From Candidatus Cloacimonadales bacterium (GTDB lineage Bacteria; Cloacimonadota; Cloacimonadia; Cloacimonadales; DAONDQ01): a stretch of DNA of 64,000 nucleotides. A program made the position numbers and the translations under genes. Of the stretch, positions 1 through 60,335 are shown piece after piece. Under the pieces are notes generated by a model, which saw nothing but the letters and a program-made list of their open reading frames with translations, ran no database searches and was not told the DNA's origin. Location of the stretch: NCBI GenBank assembly GCA_963662275.1, contig OY759316.1, positions 3,616,001 through 3,680,000 of the forward strand, written 5' to 3'. The number at the start of each line of letters is the position of its first letter. Position 1 is the first letter of the stretch.

Positions 1-1618
1 TTTCTTCTGCCTGGAAACGTCTTACGAGTAAATAGTCTGAGTAATTACCAGGGAATTTACGGATACCATCCTTCTCAAATAAAAATAGATGATCCACGAC
101 ACGATCTAAAAAGAAACGATCATGAGATACCACCAGTATGCATCCTTTGTAAGCATCCAGGTAATCTTCCAGGATCTCTAAAGTGGGAATATCTAAATCA
201 TTCGTTGGTTCATCAAGAATTAGGAAATTTGAACCAAACATCAAGGAACGAAGTAAGTATAACCTCTTTTTTTCTCCACCGGAAAGACTGGAAATCTTTG
301 ATTGCTGCATCTTTCCATCAAAGAGAAAGCGTTCCAGCATTTCATAGGCAGAATGTAACGCACCATCCTTAGTTCGGATATATTCTGCTTGCTCCTTGAT
401 ATAATCGATCACTGAAATATTCAAGGGCATTTCATCGACTTCCTGCTTATAATAGGATAACAAAGTATTGATGCCAATCTTCACACTGCCTGACAACGGA
501 TGAATATCTCCACTAAGAATATTGATCAGTGTTGTCTTACCACAGCCATTATCACCAATGATACCAATGCGTTCCAAAGCTTGAAAGATATGATTGAAGT
601 TAGTAAAAAGCTCTCTCTTCCCATAACTCATACTGATTTGGTGCGCTTCCAAGATGGTTTTCCCTAATCTCTTGGTTTGGAAGGAGATGGATAAATCCTG
701 CTGCGTAGTCAGATATGATTTGTCGATCAATTCCTTCACCCTGTCTATATGACTCTTGGGCTTCGATGTCCTGGCTTTGGAACCACGCTGCAGCCATTTG
801 ATCTCTTTACGTAAAATAGCAGCTCTTCGTGTTTCTCTTCTCTGGTTATCAGCAGCTTCCATTTCCTTCTTTTCCAGGTAATGAGAGTAATTCCCCTGGA
901 AGAAGCTCACTTCTCCTTTATCCATTTCCATAATACGATTTGATACACCATCCAGGAAATAACGGTCATGAGTTACGAAAACGATTGTACCATTGAAGTT
1001 TTCCAGGTAATTCTGGAGCCATTCTATAGCATCAATGTCAAGATGGTTGGTAGGCTCATCCAAGAGCAGGATATCCGGTTTTTCAAGCAGGACTCGGGCA
1101 AGGTCTATCTTTCGTTTCTGTCCACCGGAGAGTGTACCAATGATTTGCTGATCATCGTTCAAACCGAATATAGCCAGCACCGTTTTAGCTTGAGTTTCCA
1201 TGTCCCAGCCATGCAAATTATCAATTTTCTCAGCTAATTTCTGCTGTTCCTTGAATAGGTCATCAGAGAATTCAGCATGAAGAAGATGAGTGACACGATG
1301 ATACTGGCGTAGGATTTGAAAGATTTCAAGGTCTCCCTGGAAAATCTGATCCATGATGGACAATTGCAGATCCAAGACCGGTGATTGGGGAAGGTAAGAA
1401 ACTCGCATGTCATTACGGAATGTGATCTTACCAATATCGGAATGATCTTGCTTGGCAAGAAGACGCAATAATGTCGTTTTACCACAGCCATTCACACCAA
1501 TCAAACCAATACGGTCTCCATGATGAATACCGAAGCTGGCTTCTCGGACAATCAGTTTCTCTGCATATTGCTTATGGATGTTTTCTAATGTAATGACAAT
1601 GTCACCAATATTAATCAA
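1..1618 (-). CDS. ABC-F family ATP-binding protein (Uup-like), 3' end beyond window edge
   Basis: Absent from ORF track because it runs off the edge. Manual translation from TTG at 1618: two Walker A motifs (GVNGCGKT, GDNGCGKT), signatures LSGGQKR and LSGGEKKR, LLLDEPTNHLD and VSHDRYF motifs, no TM segments. Confidence 0.9.
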   Translation of the reverse strand, partial: MINIGDIVITLENIHKQYAEKLIVREASFGIHHGDRIGLIGVNGCGKTTLLRLLAKQDHSDIGKITFRNDMRVSYLPQSPVLDLQLSIMDQIFQGDLEIFQILRQYHRVTHLLHAEFSDDLFKEQQKLAEKIDNLHGWDMETQAKTVLAIFGLNDDQQIIGTLSGGQKRKIDLARVLLEKPDILLLDEPTNHLDIDAIEWLQNYLENFNGTIVFVTHDRYFLDGVSNRIMEMDKGEVSFFQGNYSHYLEKKEMEAADNQRRETRRAAILRKEIKWLQRGSKARTSKPKSHIDRVKELIDKSYLTTQQDLSISFQTKRLGKTILEAHQISMSYGKRELFTNFNHIFQALERIGIIGDNGCGKTTLINILSGDIHPLSGSVKIGINTLLSYYKQEVDEMPLNISVIDYIKEQAEYIRTKDGALHSAYEMLERFLFDGKMQQSKISSLSGGEKKRLYLLRSLMFGSNFLILDEPTNDLDIPTLEILEDYLDAYKGCILVVSHDRFFLDRVVDHLFLFEKDGIRKFPGNYSDYLLVRRFQAEE

Positions 1619-10959: not shown

Positions 10960-11106
10960 AATTTGAAACTTTCAGGTATTTGTATCATGTCAAGGAAAAG
11001 TATGAAGTGCGAAGTGCGAAGTTGAAGAGCAGAACTAACTAACTTGACAAGATTATTATTTGATAGAAAATTAAAAAAATAAACTATGATGTATTGGGAG
11101 ATAATA

Positions 11107-11955
11107 ATGACTCGATATTTGATTCTTGTATTGTTGATATTATTACTATTATCCTGTTCAAAGCCCACTTCAAACGATAATACACCTCAATCTTTTTCCT
11201 TAACAATCAAGCTTCTGGATACCAACAACCAACCGCTGGATAATTATATAGTAGCGGTTGGTCCTAGTATTGATACTGAAGAGTATCACTTTCGACCTAC
11301 AACATATATTCCATTCACGATTGCTCATACTTGTCATGCCAAATTTGAAGTACAGGACTATTTCGGCAATCATGTTAAAACACTTATGGATCTTGATCTT
11401 CACCCAGGCAACCATACAGCCTTCTGGAATTCTACCGATGATTCAGGAAACTTCGTAAACAGAGATGGACTCTATAAGTTCCGGCTTGAGTGTTTTGAAA
11501 ATAATCAAAGTGTCTTTTGCGATTCTACCTATGGTTATCAATTAGTCTGGCTTTATGGTTCTCGTTCGCCTTATTCCACAAATTCTCATGGAGAATGCAC
11601 AATCACAAGCAAACTACCTTTCCCGATTCTCTATAATGAACAAATAATTCCAAAAACTGACGAGGAATCCAATAATTTAGGAGATATAGACTTTTCAGAT
11701 CAATTCCGTGTTATTGTATGCCAGGCTGATTCTACAGGTGAACCTCTGGGCGAAAAACGATACCAGGTATTTACAATACATGATGATTTGAATACACTCA
11801 CATTGAATTGGGATACCTTGAATATTTTGAATAACACAGCTCAAACTTCAAAGCAAATAAAAAAGGTACTACCGATCGGTAATCAAATGTTATCGAAAGA
11901 CGTACCTTCTTCATTATATAAGCTCTATCCTGTTTACCCAAACCCCTATAATTAG
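11107..11955 (+). CDS. Lipoprotein with internal FlgD-Ig/CTD-like domain and C-terminal YPNPYN motif
   Basis: Signal II MTRYLILVLLILLLLS|C with RBS GGGAG; internal DYFGNHVKTL...WNSTDDSG...GLYKFRL matches the CTDs of other window proteins. Confidence 0.8.
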   Translation: MTRYLILVLLILLLLSCSKPTSNDNTPQSFSLTIKLLDTNNQPLDNYIVAVGPSIDTEEYHFRPTTYIPFTIAHTCHAKFEVQDYFGNHVKTLMDLDLHPGNHTAFWNSTDDSGNFVNRDGLYKFRLECFENNQSVFCDSTYGYQLVWLYGSRSPYSTNSHGECTITSKLPFPILYNEQIIPKTDEESNNLGDIDFSDQFRVIVCQADSTGEPLGEKRYQVFTIHDDLNTLTLNWDTLNILNNTAQTSKQIKKVLPIGNQMLSKDVPSSLYKLYPVYPNPYN

Positions 11956-13268: not shown

Positions 13269-15161
13269 GGAGATGTCCCGAAACTAAATGATAGAAAAAT
13301 AGCAACTATTAAATATTAATCATATTACTTGACATATTGTTATAGGGTGTATTGTTGCCTTTAAAAACTAAGCATAGAGAGAATTATGAATTTCAGAGAG
13401 CACAATCCGAATCAGGGGACACTCTATGGACTTAATATTGAAGAGAGAATACCTCCCCAGCACATGGTTCGTTATGTTAACGATGTCGTTGAGCAACTGG
13501 ACTTATCTGAGCTATATACAAGATACTCTGATGAAGGTACACCTGCTTATCATCCCAAGATGATGTTGAAGATCATTGTGTATGCCTATATCAATGGTAT
13601 TTATACCTGTCGGAAGATAGCTAAGGCTGTTCGGGAGAACATCAATTTTATCTGGCTGGCAGGAGAACAGGAACCTGATTTCAGAACGATCAACACCTTT
13701 GCCTGGACTAAGTGTTCTGATATTCTTATTGATGTATTTTATCAGGTAGTACTGAAAGCATCATCATTAGGATATCTTGATCTCGACACCTGTTTTGTTG
13801 ACGGGACGACGATTCACGCAAATGCCGGCAAGAATTCCTACATCTGGAAAAGCAATGCGCTTCGTTATCAGGAACTGGTCAAGACACGAGTTGAGGGATT
13901 GTTTAAAAAGATCGAGGAATATAATCAGGAAGAGCAACAGCAATATGGAACCGCTGATCTTCTTGAGCTTGGTGAGCAATTGCATGCGGTTGAATCAGAG
14001 AAAACTGCTACAGTCGCATCTGAACAGATCAGAGATAGACTGGTCTCAGCAGAAAACAAGCTGAAAGAAGCAATGTCCCGACTACAGAAAAATCATCCGT
14101 CAGATACTCGGGCTATCAAGAAAATCAAATCTCTTTTGCGCGAAATCTCCAAATCAAAGAGCAATGATATAACTAAGCTGGAGAAATATGAGCAACAGCT
14201 TGAGATAATTGGAGAAGGACGCAGCAGCACATCCAAGACTGATAATGATGCCACATTTATGCGATTGAAAAATGGACAGCTGGCACCGGGTTATGTTGCC
14301 AGTATCGGAACTTCAGAGCAATTTGTCACAGGCATTCACTTATTCAATATCCCTAAAGAAACCGTTGAATTTCCCAATCTCATGGAGCAAATGCATGATG
14401 AATTGGGACAATATCCTACCGACGTTGTTGGAGATGCTGCCTATGGCACTGCGCTGAATTTGAATTATGCTGCTGAAAAAGAGATAACAAGCTATCTCAA
14501 GACCCAGGATTATAAGAGAGATTATCGGGACTCTCTTCTGACAGGCTTCAGCTATGATGAGGAGCATGATGAGTGGGTCTGTCAATTTAATCGGAGACTG
14601 GTCAAAATCAAGGAAGAAGAGACAGAGAAGAACGGTCCGAAACGAATCGTGAAAACCTATATATGTAATGACTGCAGAGAATGTCCTCACAATAAAAAGT
14701 GTATTCCCTACAAGGATAAAACACATAAATCACTGACCTACGATCCTCATATAGCTCCACTAAAACGTCAGACCGTCAATAATCTGCTTTCTGAAAAAGG
14801 CGACAAGCTGAGAAAGCAAAGAGGCATCGAACCGGAGGCTGTATTTGCTTTCATGAAGTGGAACAGGAAGTTTGAGAGATTTACTGTCCGTTCATTGAGA
14901 AAATGCAAGGAACAGTTATCCCTCCTCTTTTTAGGACATAATATAGGGAAAATGTTTCTGCACTTACAAAATACTGAAGGAAAAGCCTGATGAAGACTCT
15001 TCCTACCAGAATTCAAACATGAATTAGGTAAATATTACTCCGTTTTTCCTTGTCTTTGCATCGCTTTTCGGAAACTATTGAGTAATTTAGTTTGCCTGTA
15101 AAAACAATCACATATTTTACAACAGAAGAAAATAAAATCATGCTAGTTTCGGGACATCTCC
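13269..15161 (+). mobile_element. IS1182-family insertion sequence (~1.9 kb)
   Basis: Perfect 18-bp terminal inverted repeats ggagatgtcccgaaacta (13269-13286) and tagtttcgggacatctcc (15144-15161) around one transposase; no flanking direct repeat seen. Confidence 0.9.
13386..14990 (+). CDS. IS1182-family DDE transposase
   Basis: GTPAYHPKMMLK, PDFRTI, FVDGTTIHANA, SKTDNDATFM, GDAAYG, Cys-rich CRECP..C, RGIEPEAVF. Confidence 0.93.
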   Translation: MNFREHNPNQGTLYGLNIEERIPPQHMVRYVNDVVEQLDLSELYTRYSDEGTPAYHPKMMLKIIVYAYINGIYTCRKIAKAVRENINFIWLAGEQEPDFRTINTFAWTKCSDILIDVFYQVVLKASSLGYLDLDTCFVDGTTIHANAGKNSYIWKSNALRYQELVKTRVEGLFKKIEEYNQEEQQQYGTADLLELGEQLHAVESEKTATVASEQIRDRLVSAENKLKEAMSRLQKNHPSDTRAIKKIKSLLREISKSKSNDITKLEKYEQQLEIIGEGRSSTSKTDNDATFMRLKNGQLAPGYVASIGTSEQFVTGIHLFNIPKETVEFPNLMEQMHDELGQYPTDVVGDAAYGTALNLNYAAEKEITSYLKTQDYKRDYRDSLLTGFSYDEEHDEWVCQFNRRLVKIKEEETEKNGPKRIVKTYICNDCRECPHNKKCIPYKDKTHKSLTYDPHIAPLKRQTVNNLLSEKGDKLRKQRGIEPEAVFAFMKWNRKFERFTVRSLRKCKEQLSLLFLGHNIGKMFLHLQNTEGKA

Positions 15162-30904: not shown

Positions 30905-31357
30905 CTATTTTAACATCAGCATTTTATTGACTTTGATTTGGTCATTGCACTTGACCTTATAAATATAAGGACCCGTGGCACATGCTTTCCCGGTTTCATT
31001 CAAGCCGTTCCAGGTCAGTTCGTGTACTCCTTTAGTCATATACTCTTTTGCCAGAACCTTTACCAATTGCCCTCTAATGTTATAAATTGCTACTTCTGTC
31101 TGATACGGTTCCGACAATTCAAACTTGATTATGGTTGAGGGATTAAACGGATTGGGGTAATTGGTTAAAAACTTAATGGGGACTTTAGACAGGAACGCAA
31201 CCCAATCATTATTGGAGACATTGCTGAAATTGATCTGCTGAATATCCTGAACCTGGAACTCCGCAGTAGTTCCATTTGTGAGATGGACATACATGACATC
31301 ACAATACAACAGAAACGGAATCAGAATTAATAAAACGAGGAATATAACTCTGAACAT
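30905..31357 (-). CDS. Small secreted protein: short N-terminal motif + FlgD-Ig/T9SS-like CTD
   Basis: Signal peptide, RBS AGGAGG; NYPNPFNPST...IYNIRGQLVK...WNG...NKMLMLK. Confidence 0.87.
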   Translation of the reverse strand: MFRVIFLVLLILIPFLLYCDVMYVHLTNGTTAEFQVQDIQQINFSNVSNNDWVAFLSKVPIKFLTNYPNPFNPSTIIKFELSEPYQTEVAIYNIRGQLVKVLAKEYMTKGVHELTWNGLNETGKACATGPYIYKVKCNDQIKVNKMLMLK

Positions 31358-33648: not shown

Positions 33649-35760
33649 ATCGAGTAGGGTGATGCTGGCTAATTAATTCCAGCATCATCCCTCTCACAGA
33701 ACCGTGCGTACGGGTCTCGTACACGGCTCCTGATAATCCTTGTAATTACTCGTAGTAATTAAATAAAACACTTGTCTGAAGTGATGTCAAATCAAACAAC
33801 TTCATTTCTTCAAACCACTTGTTCGGCAAGGCAAAGCATAAGTGGAAGCTCTGAGCGTTACGCCATCTGGTCATAGATAGTTTTGGGCATTCTCCCTTGA
33901 AGCCTTGTCTGCGCATTGCTTTATGGAATGCTTTCCAGCTCTTCCATTCACGCATCTTCTTCATTCGAAGCCTCCTTCGTATCCATTCCATCAGGCTCGC
34001 AAAGATGCTTTTACAACTCGCAACTTTGAAATAGTTACCCCATCCCCTTAGTACAGGATTCAGGCTTCCTATCGTCATGGATATTGGGATGCCACTGTTG
34101 CGGGGAGTAAGCTTACGTATCTTATCCTTGAAACGTTTCAAACGCTCCTTGTCGATGCAGACACGGCTTCCTTTGATGAAAAATCCCAGATAGCTGATTC
34201 CTGTTTCGACACTGCTGATATGAGTCTTTTCCAGATTGACTTGCAAGCGAAGTTCTTCAAGTATCGCTGTCGCGATCCTTTGATATTGCTCTGCCTTTTT
34301 CCTGGTCGGAGCAAATATCAGGATGTCATCAGCATAACGTACTATCCTGATGTTCCGCTGTTTCATCCTCTGGTCGAACTCATCCAGATAGATATTCATC
34401 AATAAGGGTGAGATTACTCCACCTTGCGGACTGCCTATCTCAGTAGCTTTGAAATCCCCATCGACCATTACTCCTGATTTGAGAAAACGGCTGATTAATC
34501 TCAGCAATGTACCATCACTGATTTTCCTGTTCAGACGGCTCAATATCAGTTCGTGGTCTAAGGTGTCAAAACACTTGGATAAGTCCATATTCACAGCATA
34601 ACCCAAATTGTACGCTGTAAGAAAACGCTGAGCTTTCGCTACGGCATGTTGGCAAGACCGATGCGGTCTGTAACCATAACTGGACGGATGGAAGTCAGGC
34701 TCAAATATCGGTTGTATGATATTCAGGATTGCCTGCTGCACTACTCTGTCTCTTACCGTTGGAATGCCAAGCGGTCTCATTTTGCCATTGGGTTTGGGTA
34801 TCTCTAACCGCCTTACAGGTGATGGCTCGTAAGTACCTGCCATTAGTTCGTCGTGAAGTTGGTTGATGTTCACTGCCAGTTGTTCGTCAAAGTTTTCTAT
34901 ACTCTGCCCATCAATGCCTGATGCACCTTTATTCCGTTTCACCGAAGTAAAGGAAGCATACAAATTGGGCAGGGAGTACACCTTGTCGATTAAGCTGTAG
35001 TATTTTCTCATGACATTTCCTGTCTCATTGTGATTCGTTTTGCGGTGTTCATCGAGGATGAATGTCTCTTCATCAGGGTGTCCTGCCTTCTTTAGCATAT
35101 AGCAATATGACAGAACTGCTGCTTTTGAGCTTTGCCTGACTAATCAGTCTCGTGCGGTCGGGGTTGAAAGGAAGTTCGTCACCACTGTCAAACCGAGCCT
35201 CGAAGCATTTCAGCTTCTTCCTTCGTTTCTCACTTTTCATCGATTACTTTCCACATTTCAAATCATCCCTTTGGATTATCTTCATCCCTTCGCATGAACT
35301 GTATCCTTTTGAGATACAGCCCTCAGCATTACCGTGAATGCTGTCCCTTTTGTTTTATCCTCCAGACTGTCACCAGCTTTCATAGGCAAAAGGTTTGTCA
35401 CTACTACGGAATCATCTGCCACCTGCTATCGCTTGGCTTCTCACTTATCTTTCAACTTGATCGAAACGACTACCTTAAGTAGACAATAACAGGCTTCCCC
35501 AGTTAAGTTCTCCTGCCTGAATATGAAGCCATCTGTCATAATCTGTAGAGATATCCAGCTTTCGGGCTTTCCCACTTTTTGAAAGGTTACCCACTCTACA
35601 AACCAACATCAGTTCACTTGCGCTATGTTCCATATTCCCTCTGCGTCTTACTTCAGACCCTGCCGTTGCCGGCAACGCCCTTGACCTCGAGTTGACTTCC
35701 CGCTGATTAGGTGTCAGGACTTCTTCCAGTCCATCGGCGCAGAAAACATTCTGGGCAAAC
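33649..35760 (-). mobile_element. Group II intron, class C-like (terminator-targeting), ~2.1 kb
   Basis: 5' end GTTTGCCCAGAATG right after a hairpin + T6; domain V GAGCCGTGTACGAGACCCGTACGCACGGTTC, domain VI ending CCCTACTCGAT; encodes an RT/maturase. Confidence 0.9.
33746..35011 (-). CDS. ltrA: Group II intron reverse transcriptase/maturase, no endonuclease domain
   Basis: RPLGIPTVRDRVVQQA, SYGYRP, DLSKCFD, GSPQGGVISPLLMNIYL, RYADD, RGWGNYF thumb; probable start MRKYYSLIDK at 35011. Confidence 0.93.
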   Translation of the reverse strand: MRKYYSLIDKVYSLPNLYASFTSVKRNKGASGIDGQSIENFDEQLAVNINQLHDELMAGTYEPSPVRRLEIPKPNGKMRPLGIPTVRDRVVQQAILNIIQPIFEPDFHPSSYGYRPHRSCQHAVAKAQRFLTAYNLGYAVNMDLSKCFDTLDHELILSRLNRKISDGTLLRLISRFLKSGVMVDGDFKATEIGSPQGGVISPLLMNIYLDEFDQRMKQRNIRIVRYADDILIFAPTRKKAEQYQRIATAILEELRLQVNLEKTHISSVETGISYLGFFIKGSRVCIDKERLKRFKDKIRKLTPRNSGIPISMTIGSLNPVLRGWGNYFKVASCKSIFASLMEWIRRRLRMKKMREWKSWKAFHKAMRRQGFKGECPKLSMTRWRNAQSFHLCFALPNKWFEEMKLFDLTSLQTSVLFNYYE

Positions 35761-56660: not shown

Positions 56661-56819
56661 TTTATTACTTCCTTTATCAGTTTATATTAGGTAATACTAA
56701 TCAAATCCTGTTCCACGTAAAGCATTTTCATCAAATGAGTAGAAAAAACTTTACATCATGGAACAAAACTGACTGTATATTTCTTAAGTATATTGTGTTT
56801 AATGTATTAGGGGTTGTAC

Positions 56820-59800
56820 ATGCAAAAATTATTGCTGAACCTAGTGTTAGCCTTGCTTTTCCTGCCTTTGTGCGGGATAGATAGTATGATCAGGAACAAT
56901 GACAAACTTTTACCGCAAATGAATGATGGTTATATGACTTTGCAGACTTCCGATGAACTGCCAATTTATGCTGATAAAGCAGGTGATCCCGCTATTCCTC
57001 TTACACATCATTTCTTTCAAATACCTGCCAATTGCAGTATTGAATCTATTGAAATTGTCCCACTGGATGTCAAACAAACGATATTATCCGCACCGGTGAT
57101 TCCAATTCAAAAAACATATCCACTTTCCTATGAAGGAACACCTGAATTTGTGTTACCAAATGCTGTTTACGGACAAAGAAGCATGTATCCTACAAATTAT
57201 TTGTCACATTTTGGTGATGGATATAGCGGTAGTGTACACATTGGATATGTCACTTACTATACTGCTCAATATGAACCGGTGAGTAAGACCCTGTTTCAGC
57301 CAAGTCAATTTAGAATTGAAGTCAATTACACAAATGATCGAAGTGACAAAATCAATCGTAACAACGTAGTCACTAATGATGTGCTATCTTCTTTAGGATT
57401 AGATATAGCCAGGGCAGCGACTGATACAACAGGATATTTACTTATCTATCCTGCTTCACTTGCCGATGCCTATGCTCCACTTGTGGAATGGAGAAAGAAA
57501 CAGGGACTTCGCGTATTTACGCAAACGGTTGAATACATCAATTCGCATTATGGAGGTGTCGATTTACAGGCAAATATCCGATTCTATATCAGGTTCATGT
57601 ATTGGGGTGAGAACATCTCCTATGTAACATTAGGCGCTGATACAGAGCAAATTCCTGATAGAAAGTTCTTCGCATTTGATTGTCATTTTGGCTACCAGGC
57701 AGATGAAAACAGTATCCCCGCTGATATGTATTATGCAAACCTGGATGGCAGTTTTGATAATAACCAGAATGGAATATATGGAGAAGAAGGATTGTTCCCA
57801 ATGGAACAGCCTGGATGGTATTATTTAGAAGAACCTGATTATTTCCCTGAGGTTTATGTTGGCAGAATTAGTGCTCATAATGTTGAAGATGTTACGGATT
57901 ATGTGAACCGCTTGATTGCGTATGAGCAGGGACATTTACCTAACTACAACAATTCTGTGGGCTTAGTTATGGATTTATGGGCAGGTTCGAATAGCGTACA
58001 ATGCCAGCAATACATCGTTGAAAAAGACTTTCCCCCATATTATGATAATACTCTTCTGAACCAGGAGGATAATAACGTTTCGAATGCTCTCAGTGCTATG
58101 TCATGGAATCCTAATATCGTACAGCATACCGGTCATGCCAACCAGAATCTGATGGCTTTGCGGCATGGTTATATAAATAATGACTTCATGACACAACTGC
58201 ATAATGATTATGGCGGGTTGTTTTATTCGATCGGTTGCTGGTCTGAGGCAATTGACTATTCTTCCATCGGTGAAAAAATGGTTATGACTCCCGGAAAAGG
58301 AATGCTGGCTTTTGTGGGAAACTCACGCTTCGGTTGGGGTGCTCCAATTGCCCCGGGTTTTGGATACTCAGAGTTCTTCCAGAAACAATTCTTTCATCTT
58401 CTCTTCAAGGAAAACATCACACATATCGGAGCTGCTAATGCCCTGCAGAAGCTGCCGTTTGTTCCTTATTGCTATGGTACTTCTGTATTTAAGTGGGTTA
58501 CCTATGAATTGAATGAAACAGGAGATTCTTATTTCAGATTATTCACCGACAACCCCAAGCCCTTGATCTATCATATTACGAAAACAGGAGATGGATCTTT
58601 GATTACTGTTCTTTGTGAAGGGAATCCGGTTCCTAATGCCAAGATTTACTTTGAAGAGAGTAACCGGTGCTATGCTGCAGATGTAAATGGAATTGCTTTT
58701 ATCATATCAGCAGATTCCCTGGAGAATAAGGTATTTTCAATTTATGCTGAAGGTTATCAGACAGTTTTGGATGGAGTACTCTCAAGTACTGAAGATGTCT
58801 CCATAGTTGCATTTTACCCTCGGGATGATGCGTGGGAGTATTACTACGAGTACGACGATAGATATGAACTCAGACAATGCGGGAACTATCATTCATCCGT
58901 GCTTATCAATAATGCTGCCAGCGAAGCTCTGGCGTGTCATATTGAGTTGTTAGCAGATACAACGATCGTTCATATAGAGAACTCTGAAATTGAAACAACC
59001 TTAGCAGCGAATACTATACAGGAATATCGTGCTCCAAATTTTAGTGTCATCTATACTGAAAACACGCCGTTGTTGCCCAAGGGTTATCCGTTAACCATCC
59101 AAATTAAATTAACCGTGAACCGTAGTGGTAACGAGGAAATCATCACTCGTGATTTTGTATATCCTCTCTCTGGTCCGGAAGTTTGTATTGAAAATCTGGA
59201 TATTGAAAGCGATGCAGTCCTTCCCGGAACATCTGTTCCGTTTACGATTAGTTTTACGGAACCCATACATAGTCCGTTTAATATTAGCAAAGTAACTATA
59301 TCTTCAGATATCATCACTTTCAATGAATCACATCAAACGATTCATTACAACTCCGTATCAACAGATTCAACTATCCTGAGAGGATTTATTGGCAATTTTA
59401 TGACGATCCCCGGTAATCTTGAAGACGGTCAGATCATTCCGATACACGTTATTGTCGGTGATTCCAGGGGTCAAGGTTATCATGTCGAAAAGACACTGAT
59501 GATACCTGTTGGAAAGCTGTATTACTTCAATGATTTCAATCAATCACTGGATATGACCGGTGATCCTGAATGGCAAAGAGTTGTTGCTCCAATTGCACAA
59601 ACGGGTGGGCAAGCAAATTCTGCTCTTAGCTGCCGACCAACAGAATATGGAACATATACATTAGCCAGCCCTGATTTCGTGTACAGAGAAGGTACCCAAA
59701 TATCCTTTGATTATTTCTACAAGATGCCCATGTACGGAAAAGATGGAGTATTCATAAAACTTGTACATAATACAACCAGTGAAGATATATTATTCCTTGG

Positions 59801-60335
59801 TTCAGGTGGCGCTTTGGGACGTGTAAGCACTTCAGATTACATTACCAGTAACTGGGCGTCTTATGAGCTCGATCTGGCAAACCTGCCATTACATCCTTTG
59901 CAGGTGGGAGATTTGTTCCATCTGGAATTCTCCTTTGTGTATGCTGATACAACAGGGCTTAATAACTACACAGAGATGCCGGATGTGGGAGTATTTATTG
60001 ATGATCTGAAGATCTTCAATGATATGACAGGTTCTCAAACTAATGTGACACAACCAATCATACGAATCCTAGCTTACCCAAATCCAATCGATCAGTTTGC
60101 TTTTCTCAAAATTGATCTTCTTAGCTGGACAAATACAACCTATGATTTGAATATCTACAATATTCGTGGTCAAAGAGTCTATCATACGAAAGGGGTCGTT
60201 GAAGGAACAAAAACTAAAAGGCTGATTTGGAATAAAGTGGATGACCGAGGTTCTAAAGTTGCCAGTGGAGTTTATCTAGTAAAAATCAAAGCTGCAGGTA
60301 GGGAAGTTACGAAAAAAATCATAATCATTAATTAA
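56820..60335 (+). CDS. C25 family (gingipain-like) cysteine peptidase with propeptide and CTD
   Basis: Signal peptide, GDPAIP propeptide motif, EWRKKQG, YVTLGAD, DMYYANLDG, PEVYVGRI, HTGH and SIGC (His/Cys dyad), AYPNP...IYNIRGQ...ASGVYLV. Confidence 0.88.
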   Translation: MQKLLLNLVLALLFLPLCGIDSMIRNNDKLLPQMNDGYMTLQTSDELPIYADKAGDPAIPLTHHFFQIPANCSIESIEIVPLDVKQTILSAPVIPIQKTYPLSYEGTPEFVLPNAVYGQRSMYPTNYLSHFGDGYSGSVHIGYVTYYTAQYEPVSKTLFQPSQFRIEVNYTNDRSDKINRNNVVTNDVLSSLGLDIARAATDTTGYLLIYPASLADAYAPLVEWRKKQGLRVFTQTVEYINSHYGGVDLQANIRFYIRFMYWGENISYVTLGADTEQIPDRKFFAFDCHFGYQADENSIPADMYYANLDGSFDNNQNGIYGEEGLFPMEQPGWYYLEEPDYFPEVYVGRISAHNVEDVTDYVNRLIAYEQGHLPNYNNSVGLVMDLWAGSNSVQCQQYIVEKDFPPYYDNTLLNQEDNNVSNALSAMSWNPNIVQHTGHANQNLMALRHGYINNDFMTQLHNDYGGLFYSIGCWSEAIDYSSIGEKMVMTPGKGMLAFVGNSRFGWGAPIAPGFGYSEFFQKQFFHLLFKENITHIGAANALQKLPFVPYCYGTSVFKWVTYELNETGDSYFRLFTDNPKPLIYHITKTGDGSLITVLCEGNPVPNAKIYFEESNRCYAADVNGIAFIISADSLENKVFSIYAEGYQTVLDGVLSSTEDVSIVAFYPRDDAWEYYYEYDDRYELRQCGNYHSSVLINNAASEALACHIELLADTTIVHIENSEIETTLAANTIQEYRAPNFSVIYTENTPLLPKGYPLTIQIKLTVNRSGNEEIITRDFVYPLSGPEVCIENLDIESDAVLPGTSVPFTISFTEPIHSPFNISKVTISSDIITFNESHQTIHYNSVSTDSTILRGFIGNFMTIPGNLEDGQIIPIHVIVGDSRGQGYHVEKTLMIPVGKLYYFNDFNQSLDMTGDPEWQRVVAPIAQTGGQANSALSCRPTEYGTYTLASPDFVYREGTQISFDYFYKMPMYGKDGVFIKLVHNTTSEDILFLGSGGALGRVSTSDYITSNWASYELDLANLPLHPLQVGDLFHLEFSFVYADTTGLNNYTEMPDVGVFIDDLKIFNDMTGSQTNVTQPIIRILAYPNPIDQFAFLKIDLLSWTNTTYDLNIYNIRGQRVYHTKGVVEGTKTKRLIWNKVDDRGSKVASGVYLVKIKAAGREVTKKIIIIN

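Follow-up and report, generated by a model that had tools for sequence, protein, structure and literature searches.

A 64,000-nucleotide (nt) stretch of the genome of Candidatus Cloacimonadales bacterium (contig OY759316.1, positions 3,616,001 to 3,680,000; hereafter, the window) encodes a lipoprotein of 282 amino acids (aa) that contains a rearranged version of the C-terminal domain (CTD) that tags type IX secretion system (T9SS) cargo. As known so far, the T9SS sorting domain is a tag of seven contiguous strands that is found strictly at the C-terminus. In the lipoprotein, in contrast, the corresponding domain is internal, and the segment that would form its first strand (β1) is found at the extreme C-terminus. 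Based on the comparison of homologous sequences, we conclude that, in the family to which this protein belongs, the T9SS tag fold has undergone a natural circular permutation that is real and conserved.

A sorting-tag domain split between the interior and the end of the chain

The gene occupies positions 11107-11955 of the forward strand and consists of 282 codons and a TAG stop codon. The encoded protein starts with MTRYLILVLLILLLLSC and ends with SSLYKLYPVYPNPYN; the C-terminal stretch can also be written out as DVPSSLYKLYPVYPNPYN, and the chain stops exactly at the Asn of YPNPYN. An alternative in-frame ATG is present at 11086, but 11107 was preferred as the start because homologues begin at the equivalent Met. 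A lipobox (LLLLSC), with Cys17 as the lipidated residue, was read from the sequence near the N-terminus. The open reading frame (ORF) and the position of Pro64, which is encoded from nt 11296 directly after Arg63, were as described in the initial annotation of this DNA. Its classification of the protein as a lipoprotein is likewise upheld, as all 59 aligned members of the family have the Cys of the lipobox LLSC.

The source genome is closed and comprises 4.38 Mb with a G+C content of 39%. Its valyl-tRNA synthetase shares 69-72% identity with the enzymes of Candidatus Cloacimonadota MAGs. A CTD profile was built from 131 CTDs of this genome and compared with the lipoprotein. Residues 62-132 matched profile positions 20-89 (32.3 bits, 3.7e-12), and the last 15 residues of the chain, 268-282, matched positions 7-21 (3.5 bits). 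Because the two profile matches join there, the break falls between FN and P of the canonical YPNPFNP, which is where the initial annotation had placed the split.

In the six-frame ORFs of the whole genome, 131 of 132 occurrences of the motif [YF]PNP[FY][NS] sit 60-89 aa before the ORF end, and the lipoprotein is the sole case in which the motif is located at the end itself. The match to the CTD profile is terminal in 270 of 272 ORFs. One of the two others stops 21 aa short of its ORF end, and that of the lipoprotein is the only truly internal match. As had been noted from the letters, further proteins of the window do end in a CTD: a C-terminal Por_Secre_tail or FlgD_ig domain was found in 7 of the 24 ORFs scanned, and in four of them YPNPFNP is located 78-79 aa before the stop codon.

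PF18962 was not reported for the lipoprotein at E ≤ 10, FlgD_ig reached 17.8 bits compared with a cut-off of 27, and no significant NCBIfam match was obtained. With a profile of the family described below, one full-length copy was found in the genome. The other 149 listed matches were partial and mostly restricted to profile positions 67-134, which match cargo CTDs with E-values down to 3e-20. The inner domain is a T9SS-type CTD or FlgD_ig domain by descent, which lacks the sorting domain's defining position, its contiguity, its free basic C-terminus, and a score above the profile cut-off.

Conservation of the chain end in a family of lipoproteins

A phmmer search against 1.84 billion representative proteins yielded 1579 matches at E ≤ 1e-3, and the best 150 were examined. 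In 90 of these 150 proteins, 92 family bodies were counted, and an alignment was generated of 59 tail-bearing members that are 20-47% identical to the query. The family consists of lipoproteins of about 265-290 aa. The length does not exceed 500 aa in 104 of the 150 proteins, 69 of which end in P-x-P-F plus one residue. The initial annotation had suggested looking for lipobox proteins that end at YPNP[FY]N, and such proteins prevail: 73 of the 92 bodies carry only the tail and end in [YF]PNPFN at the stop codon. Invariant in the 59-member alignment are C17, G101, T158, G162, P278, and P280, while F281 is kept in 58 and N282 in 55 of the 59 tail forms.

At 20 loci, 19 from other genomes of the same order and one from the window, the motif was followed by an in-locus stop codon in 19 of 23 family ORFs. 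In longer members (369-650 aa), the tail is preceded by an additional domain, and the chain ends in NYPNPFN all the same. It had also been considered that homologues might continue into a full CTD, but a body running on in this way was found in none of the 150 proteins examined; the chains of the homologues end at the same residue. From W235 to position 270, the members of the family have 22-44 residues, with a median of 30.

No Pfam-A or NCBIfam model covers the family; PF13860 matched 45 of the 59 members at E ≤ 0.01. Members are listed in databases as "hypothetical protein", and P0031 bears the name "flagellar hook assembly protein FlgD". This name is a domain-level carry-over and is wrong for the protein. 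The nearest ESM Atlas clusters are unnamed, carry FlgD_ig on 25-44% of their members, and stem from candidate FCB phyla, and the family is widespread in the candidate phyla of the FCB group. In the full texts of PubMed Central (PMC) and bioRxiv, we found no description of the family, no mention of YPNPFN, and no paper tying type IX secretion to circular permutation, with papers on Cloacimonadota and the T9SS judged by their listing; in the T9SS literature of these sources, YPNP appears only in a list of CTD motifs.

In many members, the lipidated Cys is directly followed by an acidic stretch (CSDDD, CGDDDP), in place of which the query has CSKPTSNDN. Such stretches are reminiscent of the surface-export signal of Bacteroidota lipoproteins.

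Permuted, unpermuted, and tail-less forms

The remaining bodies do not carry the tail. In 8 of the 92 bodies only a segment preceding the inner domain is present, 11 have neither this segment nor the tail (two of these have the motif plus 4-9 extra residues), and none has both. One additional protein, P0128, was judged to be unpermuted by eye; it fell below the body filter and was left out of the count of 92. The unpermuted forms end just after the conserved Trp of the body and have the canonical segment immediately before the inner domain, e.g. P0072 (...PVEYSLSGPIPNPFNPTTTIRF). In positions of the family profile, their order is [4-58][255-274][67-233]. The unpermuted P0072 and the permuted P0066 are 49% identical. 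These sister forms, with the segment at its canonical place, bear out the proposal that the tail is the missing first part of a CTD-like immunoglobulin (Ig) fold.

Tandem fusions were also found. In P0031, one chain contains an unpermuted body and, after it, a permuted one, with one segment each, P0070 contains a body without β1 followed by a permuted body, and P0056 contains two bodies without β1. These three forms could plausibly represent intermediates of a permutation by duplication and truncation.

A maximum-likelihood tree was calculated for 50 members from 210 body columns, leaving out the columns of the segment, the tail, and the linker. On this tree, the unpermuted state takes four changes, at least two of which are forced by well-supported branches, and a clade with 21 tail forms (SH-aLRT 99) encloses the unpermuted P0072 and P0120. 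The root was not inferred, and the tree does not give the direction of change between the arrangements.

Adjacent tandem pairs of tail-less members (...VWEEM..) were observed in two genomes of one genus, at L027 (G089:C4:163748-167431) and at G032:C1:1902602-1904053.

Predicted docking of the tail

AlphaFold2 (AF2), applied to the 59-sequence alignment, returned a model with a pLDDT of 89.3 and a pTM of 0.82. In this model, the inner domain has six contiguous strands, β2-β7 (66-72, 76-84, 89-98, 101-107, 121-131, and 134-145), instead of seven, and β1 is predicted to be supplied by residues 271-277 at the chain end. A monomer prediction had been proposed as a check of the idea that the tail completes the domain, and it docks the tail with high confidence (10-residue block means of 96 for 271-280 and 89 for 281-282) behind a linker with values of 50-64. 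β-bridges were assigned at 272-273, 277, 279, and 281.

The outer sandwich of the model resembles transthyretin-like, CnaB, and carboxypeptidase-regulatory-like domains (VIA-align matches spanning 28..237, Z 8.0-8.7, about 80 residues). The inner domain (63-148) was aligned by the same method with FlgD 3osv (Z 7.5, root mean square deviation (rmsd) 2.1) and with the CTD of PorU (6za2_B 1068-1158; Z 6.8, rmsd 2.2 over 84 residues). Because such sandwiches commonly reach Z values of 7-8, the homology is carried by the sequence evidence.

The body (18-245) and the tail (246-282) were also submitted as two separate chains to ESMFold2, together with three controls and using our own alignment. The ipSAE value was 0.87 compared with 0.01 for the best of the three controls. 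This mark is reached by 116 of 157 solved complexes and by 2 of 215 mismatched pairs, counts that are only a rough guide given the use of our own alignment. The runs shared at least 69% of the contacts, and the pLDDT of the partner was at least 53.

In the two-chain prediction, tail residues 269-282 contact residues 60, 62-73, 100-101, 107, 109, 125-129, 136-147, 149-150, 181-190, and 194. The tightest predicted pairs are 70:272-274, 69:274-275, 68:274, 68:276, 67:276-277, 66:276-277, and 71:271-272, i.e. the register is antiparallel with strand 66-72 (β2), with i+j about 343. L273 reaches residues 125, 127, and 139-141 in the other sheet, and Y277 to N279 touch residues 183-185 of the outer domain. 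In the solved CTDs of P. gingivalis, the sheets are β4-β3-β6-β7 and β5-β2-β1, according to PMC11285876. As the predicted pairing matches this published sheet order, the tail would take the β1 edge position beside β2.

The terminal Asn, Arg63, and a probable intramolecular clasp

Position 63 is basic in 52 of the 59 tail forms (Arg in 34, Lys in 18) and is usually followed by Ala or Pro, whereas in the unpermuted forms it is an Asn, Tyr, Phe, Glu, or Ala within a continuous loop. Asn is present at the end of the motif in 55 of the 59 tails; of the 257 cargo CTDs of the genome, only 120 have an Asn at the equivalent place. In the two-chain prediction, residue 63 is part of the interface with the tail. 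We infer that the free carboxylate of Asn282 lies beside the conserved Arg or Lys63 at the old junction between N and P.

The explanation that we favor, and regard as rather probable, is that the protein consists of two nested sandwiches, that the inner, CTD-like Ig domain is circularly permuted, and that the tail acts as an intramolecular clasp on its own chain. The outer transthyretin- or carboxypeptidase-regulatory-like sandwich would hold the inserted Ig domain homologous to the CTD of T9SS cargo. The chain of the inner domain starts at β2, and the element aromatic-x-L-x-x-x-YPNPFN (β1 plus the proline loop) has moved to the extreme C-terminus; this permutation and its conservation are evident from the sequences, while the docking site is predicted. 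Over the flexible linker of 22-44 residues, the tail would fold back onto its own chain and pair antiparallel with β2 (66-72), with L273 entering the core of the sandwich. The PNPFN loop would rest against residues 183-185 of the outer domain, such that the fold would be closed and the two domains stapled together.

Several observations argue for docking in cis. AF2 closes the fold within one chain, the tandem protein P0031 has one β1 per body, and the tail site is predicted to be vacant, with no cleavage needed to open it. A tail that reaches back in cis also fits because no linker is shorter than 22 residues. The inner domain is probably no longer an export signal and would instead serve as a structural or binding module in a lipoprotein of the cell envelope; a loss of the export role is suggested because β7 lies within the chain and the protein does not have the basic motif in which cargo ends.

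A number of points weigh against this explanation. For the unpermuted forms, the chain ends were taken from gene calls (the contigs of P0120 and P0128 measure 1.64 Mb and 240 kb, respectively), and the AF2 model of the unpermuted P0072, for which 6 of 50 alignment rows carry the segment, leaves this segment undocked with a pLDDT of 45-59. Eleven bodies have neither segment, and a tail-less clade is the well-supported sister of the query protein's own clade. Because these lack β1, the strand is dispensable in some lineages, and the earlier supposition that the inner domain depends on the tail for folding holds only in part, as it does not extend to these 11 of 92 bodies. The docking site was taken from one set of ESMFold2 two-chain runs and not from AF2 coordinates. 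As the two chains together make up a single Ig-type domain, relatives of which have been solved, this result may reflect memory of solved Ig or CTD folds. It is to be read as a likeness to β1-β2 pairing, not as binding in the cell, and it does not separate cis from trans. Lastly, the contact between Arg63 and the carboxylate was derived from the register and not directly observed.

Alternative explanations

On present evidence, polymerization, a docking function, and processing by a gingipain are all less likely than an intramolecular clasp. In the first case, the tail would be exchanged in trans and fill the β1 edge of the next subunit, which would generate dimers or head-to-tail membrane polymers, and processing at Arg or Lys63 might release the subunits from their lipid anchor, as is the case in type V pili. 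This would be in line with the binding of the tail as a separate chain in silico, with the long and disordered linker, and with the conservation of the basic residue, and the tail-less members could serve as chain ends. A precedent is the CTD of RgpB, which, according to PMC4804311, forms dimers through a swap of its last strand, both in crystals and in solution. However, AF2 docks the tail of the monomer in cis with high confidence, the tail site is empty from the outset and does not require cleavage, and P0031 has one β1 per body. A cut at position 63 would release two strands of the outer domain and none of the inner domain, and the presence of both Arg (34) and Lys (18) at this position suits a charge role better than the specificity of one protease. 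In addition, a tail-bearing copy was not found in this search in the genomes G032 and G089, from which the tail-less tandem copies stem. Exchange in trans is unlikely in our view.

A second alternative is that the lipoprotein is a CTD mimic that binds PorV or PorU, or a membrane dock at which β1 of the cargo displaces the tail. The inner domain matches cargo CTDs with E-values of about 1e-20, the tail motif is the same as that of the cargo, and the genome does encode a T9SS: a PorU-type sortase was found at genome positions 549282-552497 (582 bits, cut-off 420), a match to SprA lies above its cut-off, and a PorV-like protein reached 152 bits, which is below its cut-off. In contrast, one copy of the lipoprotein gene faces about 270 cargo ORFs, and the inner domain does not have the free basic C-terminus that is held to be important for T9SS recognition.

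The distribution of the gene also speaks against a main role in the T9SS. Among 151 sampled genomes of the phylum, which show 87-460 CTD-like candidates each, the family profile found the gene in at least 23 (16 candidates per genome were scored). A query with the outer domain, which cannot match CTDs and for which all candidates were scored, found it in 13, all among the 23; this query is a single sequence and less sensitive. The genome G123, which belongs to the same genus and is 99% complete, gave no match with the family profile or the outer-domain query. No T9SS gene and no shared partner was present among 41 flanking ORFs at the 19 loci of other genomes, and conservation of the neighborhood was confined to a genus-level synteny with a peroxiredoxin gene. 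The 11 bodies without either segment likewise speak against such a role. Taken with the single copy, these results make a mimic or a dock quite improbable.

Still more doubtful is a third possibility, in which the tail would serve as a donor strand that can be exchanged. The sortase of these non-Bacteroidota organisms with a T9SS would cut the cargo between the invariant N and P of the motif, and the mature ...YPNPFN-COOH would displace the tail of the lipoprotein, insert as β1, and be held by a clamp of Arg or Lys63 and the carboxylate. Cargo would then be tethered non-covalently to a receptor with a lipid anchor, or lipoproteins would be chained to one another. If true, this would represent a protein-based alternative to the attachment of cargo via anionic lipopolysaccharide.

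It is highly improbable that the tail remains undocked and is a free C-terminal recognition motif that is bound by, for example, a protease, PDZ-like domain, or sorting factor. The extreme conservation of PxPFN at the carboxyl end, with an Asn that is more conserved than in the cargo of the genome, would suit such a signal, but the mutual exclusion of tail and pre-domain segment would be left unexplained. Mutual exclusion is expected when each inner domain needs exactly one β1, and the docking prediction with its controls also disagrees with a free motif. Lastly, a premature stop codon or a pseudogene remnant of a cargo gene with a deleted CTD, for which the nearby transposase gene and the short distance of 72 nt behind the TAG could be cited, can practically be dismissed, because the chains of homologues with 20-48% identity, from many assemblies, end at this very residue and C17, P278, and P280 are invariant.

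Gene neighborhood and sequence features

The features of the gene and its product are compiled in Table 1. The gene stands alone. A divergent gene for a NUDIX hydrolase is located upstream, and the downstream neighbor is a convergent PF06983 gene, the end of which lies 72 nt past the TAG. The frame past the stop codon reads RLSGSHPIHLQQF*, and the 72 nt after the stop codon do not encode a remainder of a CTD. Six promoter-like sites were found in the region, compared with 5.0 expected from shuffles.

Table 1. Features of the lipoprotein gene and its product, in positions of the window
Feature	Position	Strand	Basis
Promoter-like TTGACA-16-GAAAAT	11044..11071	+	Location only; does not indicate function
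Signal peptide with lipobox LLSC, lipidated Cys17	11107..11157	+	Sequence; C17 invariant in 59/59 members
Strands 1-2 of the outer split β-sandwich, residues 28-55	11188..11271	+	AF2 strands 31-37, 47-53; VIA-align
Arg63, basic residue at the break, directly before the inner domain	11293..11295	+	Alignment; two-chain prediction (interface with the tail)
Inner CTD-like / FlgD_ig Ig domain, β2-β7, residues 64-146	11296..11544	+	CTD profile, FlgD_ig, AF2, VIA-align
Remaining outer domain, residues 147-240, ends at W235; conserved motifs TD..G, FP.LY, DE.G	11545..11826	+	Alignment, AF2, VIA-align
Polar low-confidence linker, residues 241-268	11827..11910	+	AF2 pLDDT 50-64
C-terminal tail SSLYKLYPVYPNPYN, residues 269-282: putative relocated β1 plus PNPFN loop	11911..11952	+	CTD profile, AF2, two-chain prediction
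TAG stop codon directly after Asn282	11953..11955	+	ORF reading

Two mobile elements were noted in the window, a DDE transposase gene (DDE_Tnp_1_6 with DUF772) at 13386-14990 on the forward strand, 1.4 kb downstream of the lipoprotein gene, and a gene for a group II intron reverse transcriptase/maturase at 33746-35098 on the reverse strand.

The T9SS cargo of the host genome

The 272 six-frame ORFs with a match to the CTD profile represent a very large T9SS-type secretome for a genome of 4.4 Mb. The CTD starts with YPNPFNP in 94 of 257 cargo CTDs. The last residue of the cargo is Lys in 204 and Arg in 23 of the 257 cases, and the most common endings are LLK, LVK, and LMK.

The window also encodes a Peptidase_C25 protein of 1173 aa (56814-60335, forward strand) with a Por_Secre_tail of its own. 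This protein is a secreted gingipain-like protease and not the PorU sortase. The initial annotation had mentioned it without showing a direct link, and a link to the lipoprotein was not supported in view of the peptidase's own Por_Secre_tail and of the PorU sortase match elsewhere in the genome. At least two further C25-like ORFs are present, at genome positions 771554-775828 and 886127-886882.

One cargo gene outside of the window (L002, G000:C1:3740703-3743912) is frameshifted inside NYPNPFNP. Frame 1 ends with KLCNYPIRSIRVRR*, and the rest of the CTD is complete in another frame as an ORF of 92 aa, which indicates either a pseudogene or a one-base assembly error. This orphan CTD ORF, at genome position 3742172, was considered as the lost CTD of the lipoprotein and was rejected, as it is the frameshifted end of the cargo gene. 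A 150-aa ORF on the reverse strand of the window (30905-31357) contains little beyond a signal region and a CTD. Similar CTD-only ORFs of 156-161 aa are found elsewhere in the genome, e.g. at 635163, 3268815, 3761327, and 4325196.

Discussion

The family provides a case in which the fold of the T9SS tag has been adopted, in rewired form, by a lipoprotein whose chain end is fixed to one residue. Versions that are permuted, unpermuted, tail-less, or in tandem coexist and offer a ready system for studying the contribution of an edge strand to folding. The same family is suited to asking whether YPNPFN is read by anything besides the fold. A definition of the family would also improve the annotation of its members, which are at present "hypothetical" or wrongly "FlgD". 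If the tail were exchangeable, this would bear on the retention of T9SS cargo at the surface outside of the Bacteroidota.

The closest relatives of the inner domain are the T9SS type A CTD (PF18962/TIGR04183; RgpB CTD 5AG8, PorU CTD 6ZA2) and the Ig domain of the flagellar hook cap protein FlgD (PF13860; 3OSV, 7BHQ, 7EHA). With the CTD, the lipoprotein shares the β2-β7 sequence, the Ig-like sandwich, and the YPNPFN motif, and its β1 is predicted on the β2 edge, as in the published β5-β2-β1 sheet. However, its domain is internal and inserted into another domain, β1 is supplied from the chain end, β7 continues into the outer domain, and the chain ends in Asn without a free basic motif. Furthermore, the carrier is a lipoprotein and not cargo of signal peptidase I. 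FlgD is the best match in sequence and fold among the solved structures (E 1.5e-10 with the family profile), and its Ig domain is also inserted into another small β domain. Unlike FlgD, which leaves the cell via the flagellar system and has no Sec signal, the lipoprotein has no Pfam match to the FlgD N-terminal region, in place of which it has a lipobox with the invariant C17.

The initial annotation had drawn parallels with two types of pilins. Type V pilins (FimA/Mfa1) have a C-terminal strand that completes a β-sandwich, and a transthyretin-like architecture. The lipoprotein likewise has a lipid anchor, a conserved basic residue some 45 positions behind the Cys, and a C-terminal strand that is predicted to complete a sandwich. 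No fimbrillin Pfam match was found in the lipoprotein or the family, and no type V pilin was among the top 50 fold matches. In type V pilins, an N-terminal strand is cut off at a conserved Arg or Lys, and the C-terminal strand then occupies the groove. This scheme of assembly does not agree with the prediction, in that the predicted tail site is the free β2 edge and no N-terminal strand would have to be removed. In chaperone-usher pilins, as in the lipoprotein, an Ig fold that is incomplete in the linear sequence is completed by a strand from elsewhere. However, the pilins lack the last strand (G), which another subunit donates with its N-terminal extension, whereas the lipoprotein lacks the first strand, and the donor would be the C-terminus. 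No chaperone or usher was present among the 24 ORFs of the window that were scanned, and PapD and FimC appeared only as weak Foldseek rows.

Classical natural circular permutations are known from lectins, saposin/swaposin, and others. The lipoprotein family is similar to these in that the same structural elements occur in a different linear order and that tandem forms exist as possible intermediates. It differs in that only one edge strand has been moved, across a second domain and a long linker, to a terminus that is fixed to a single residue.

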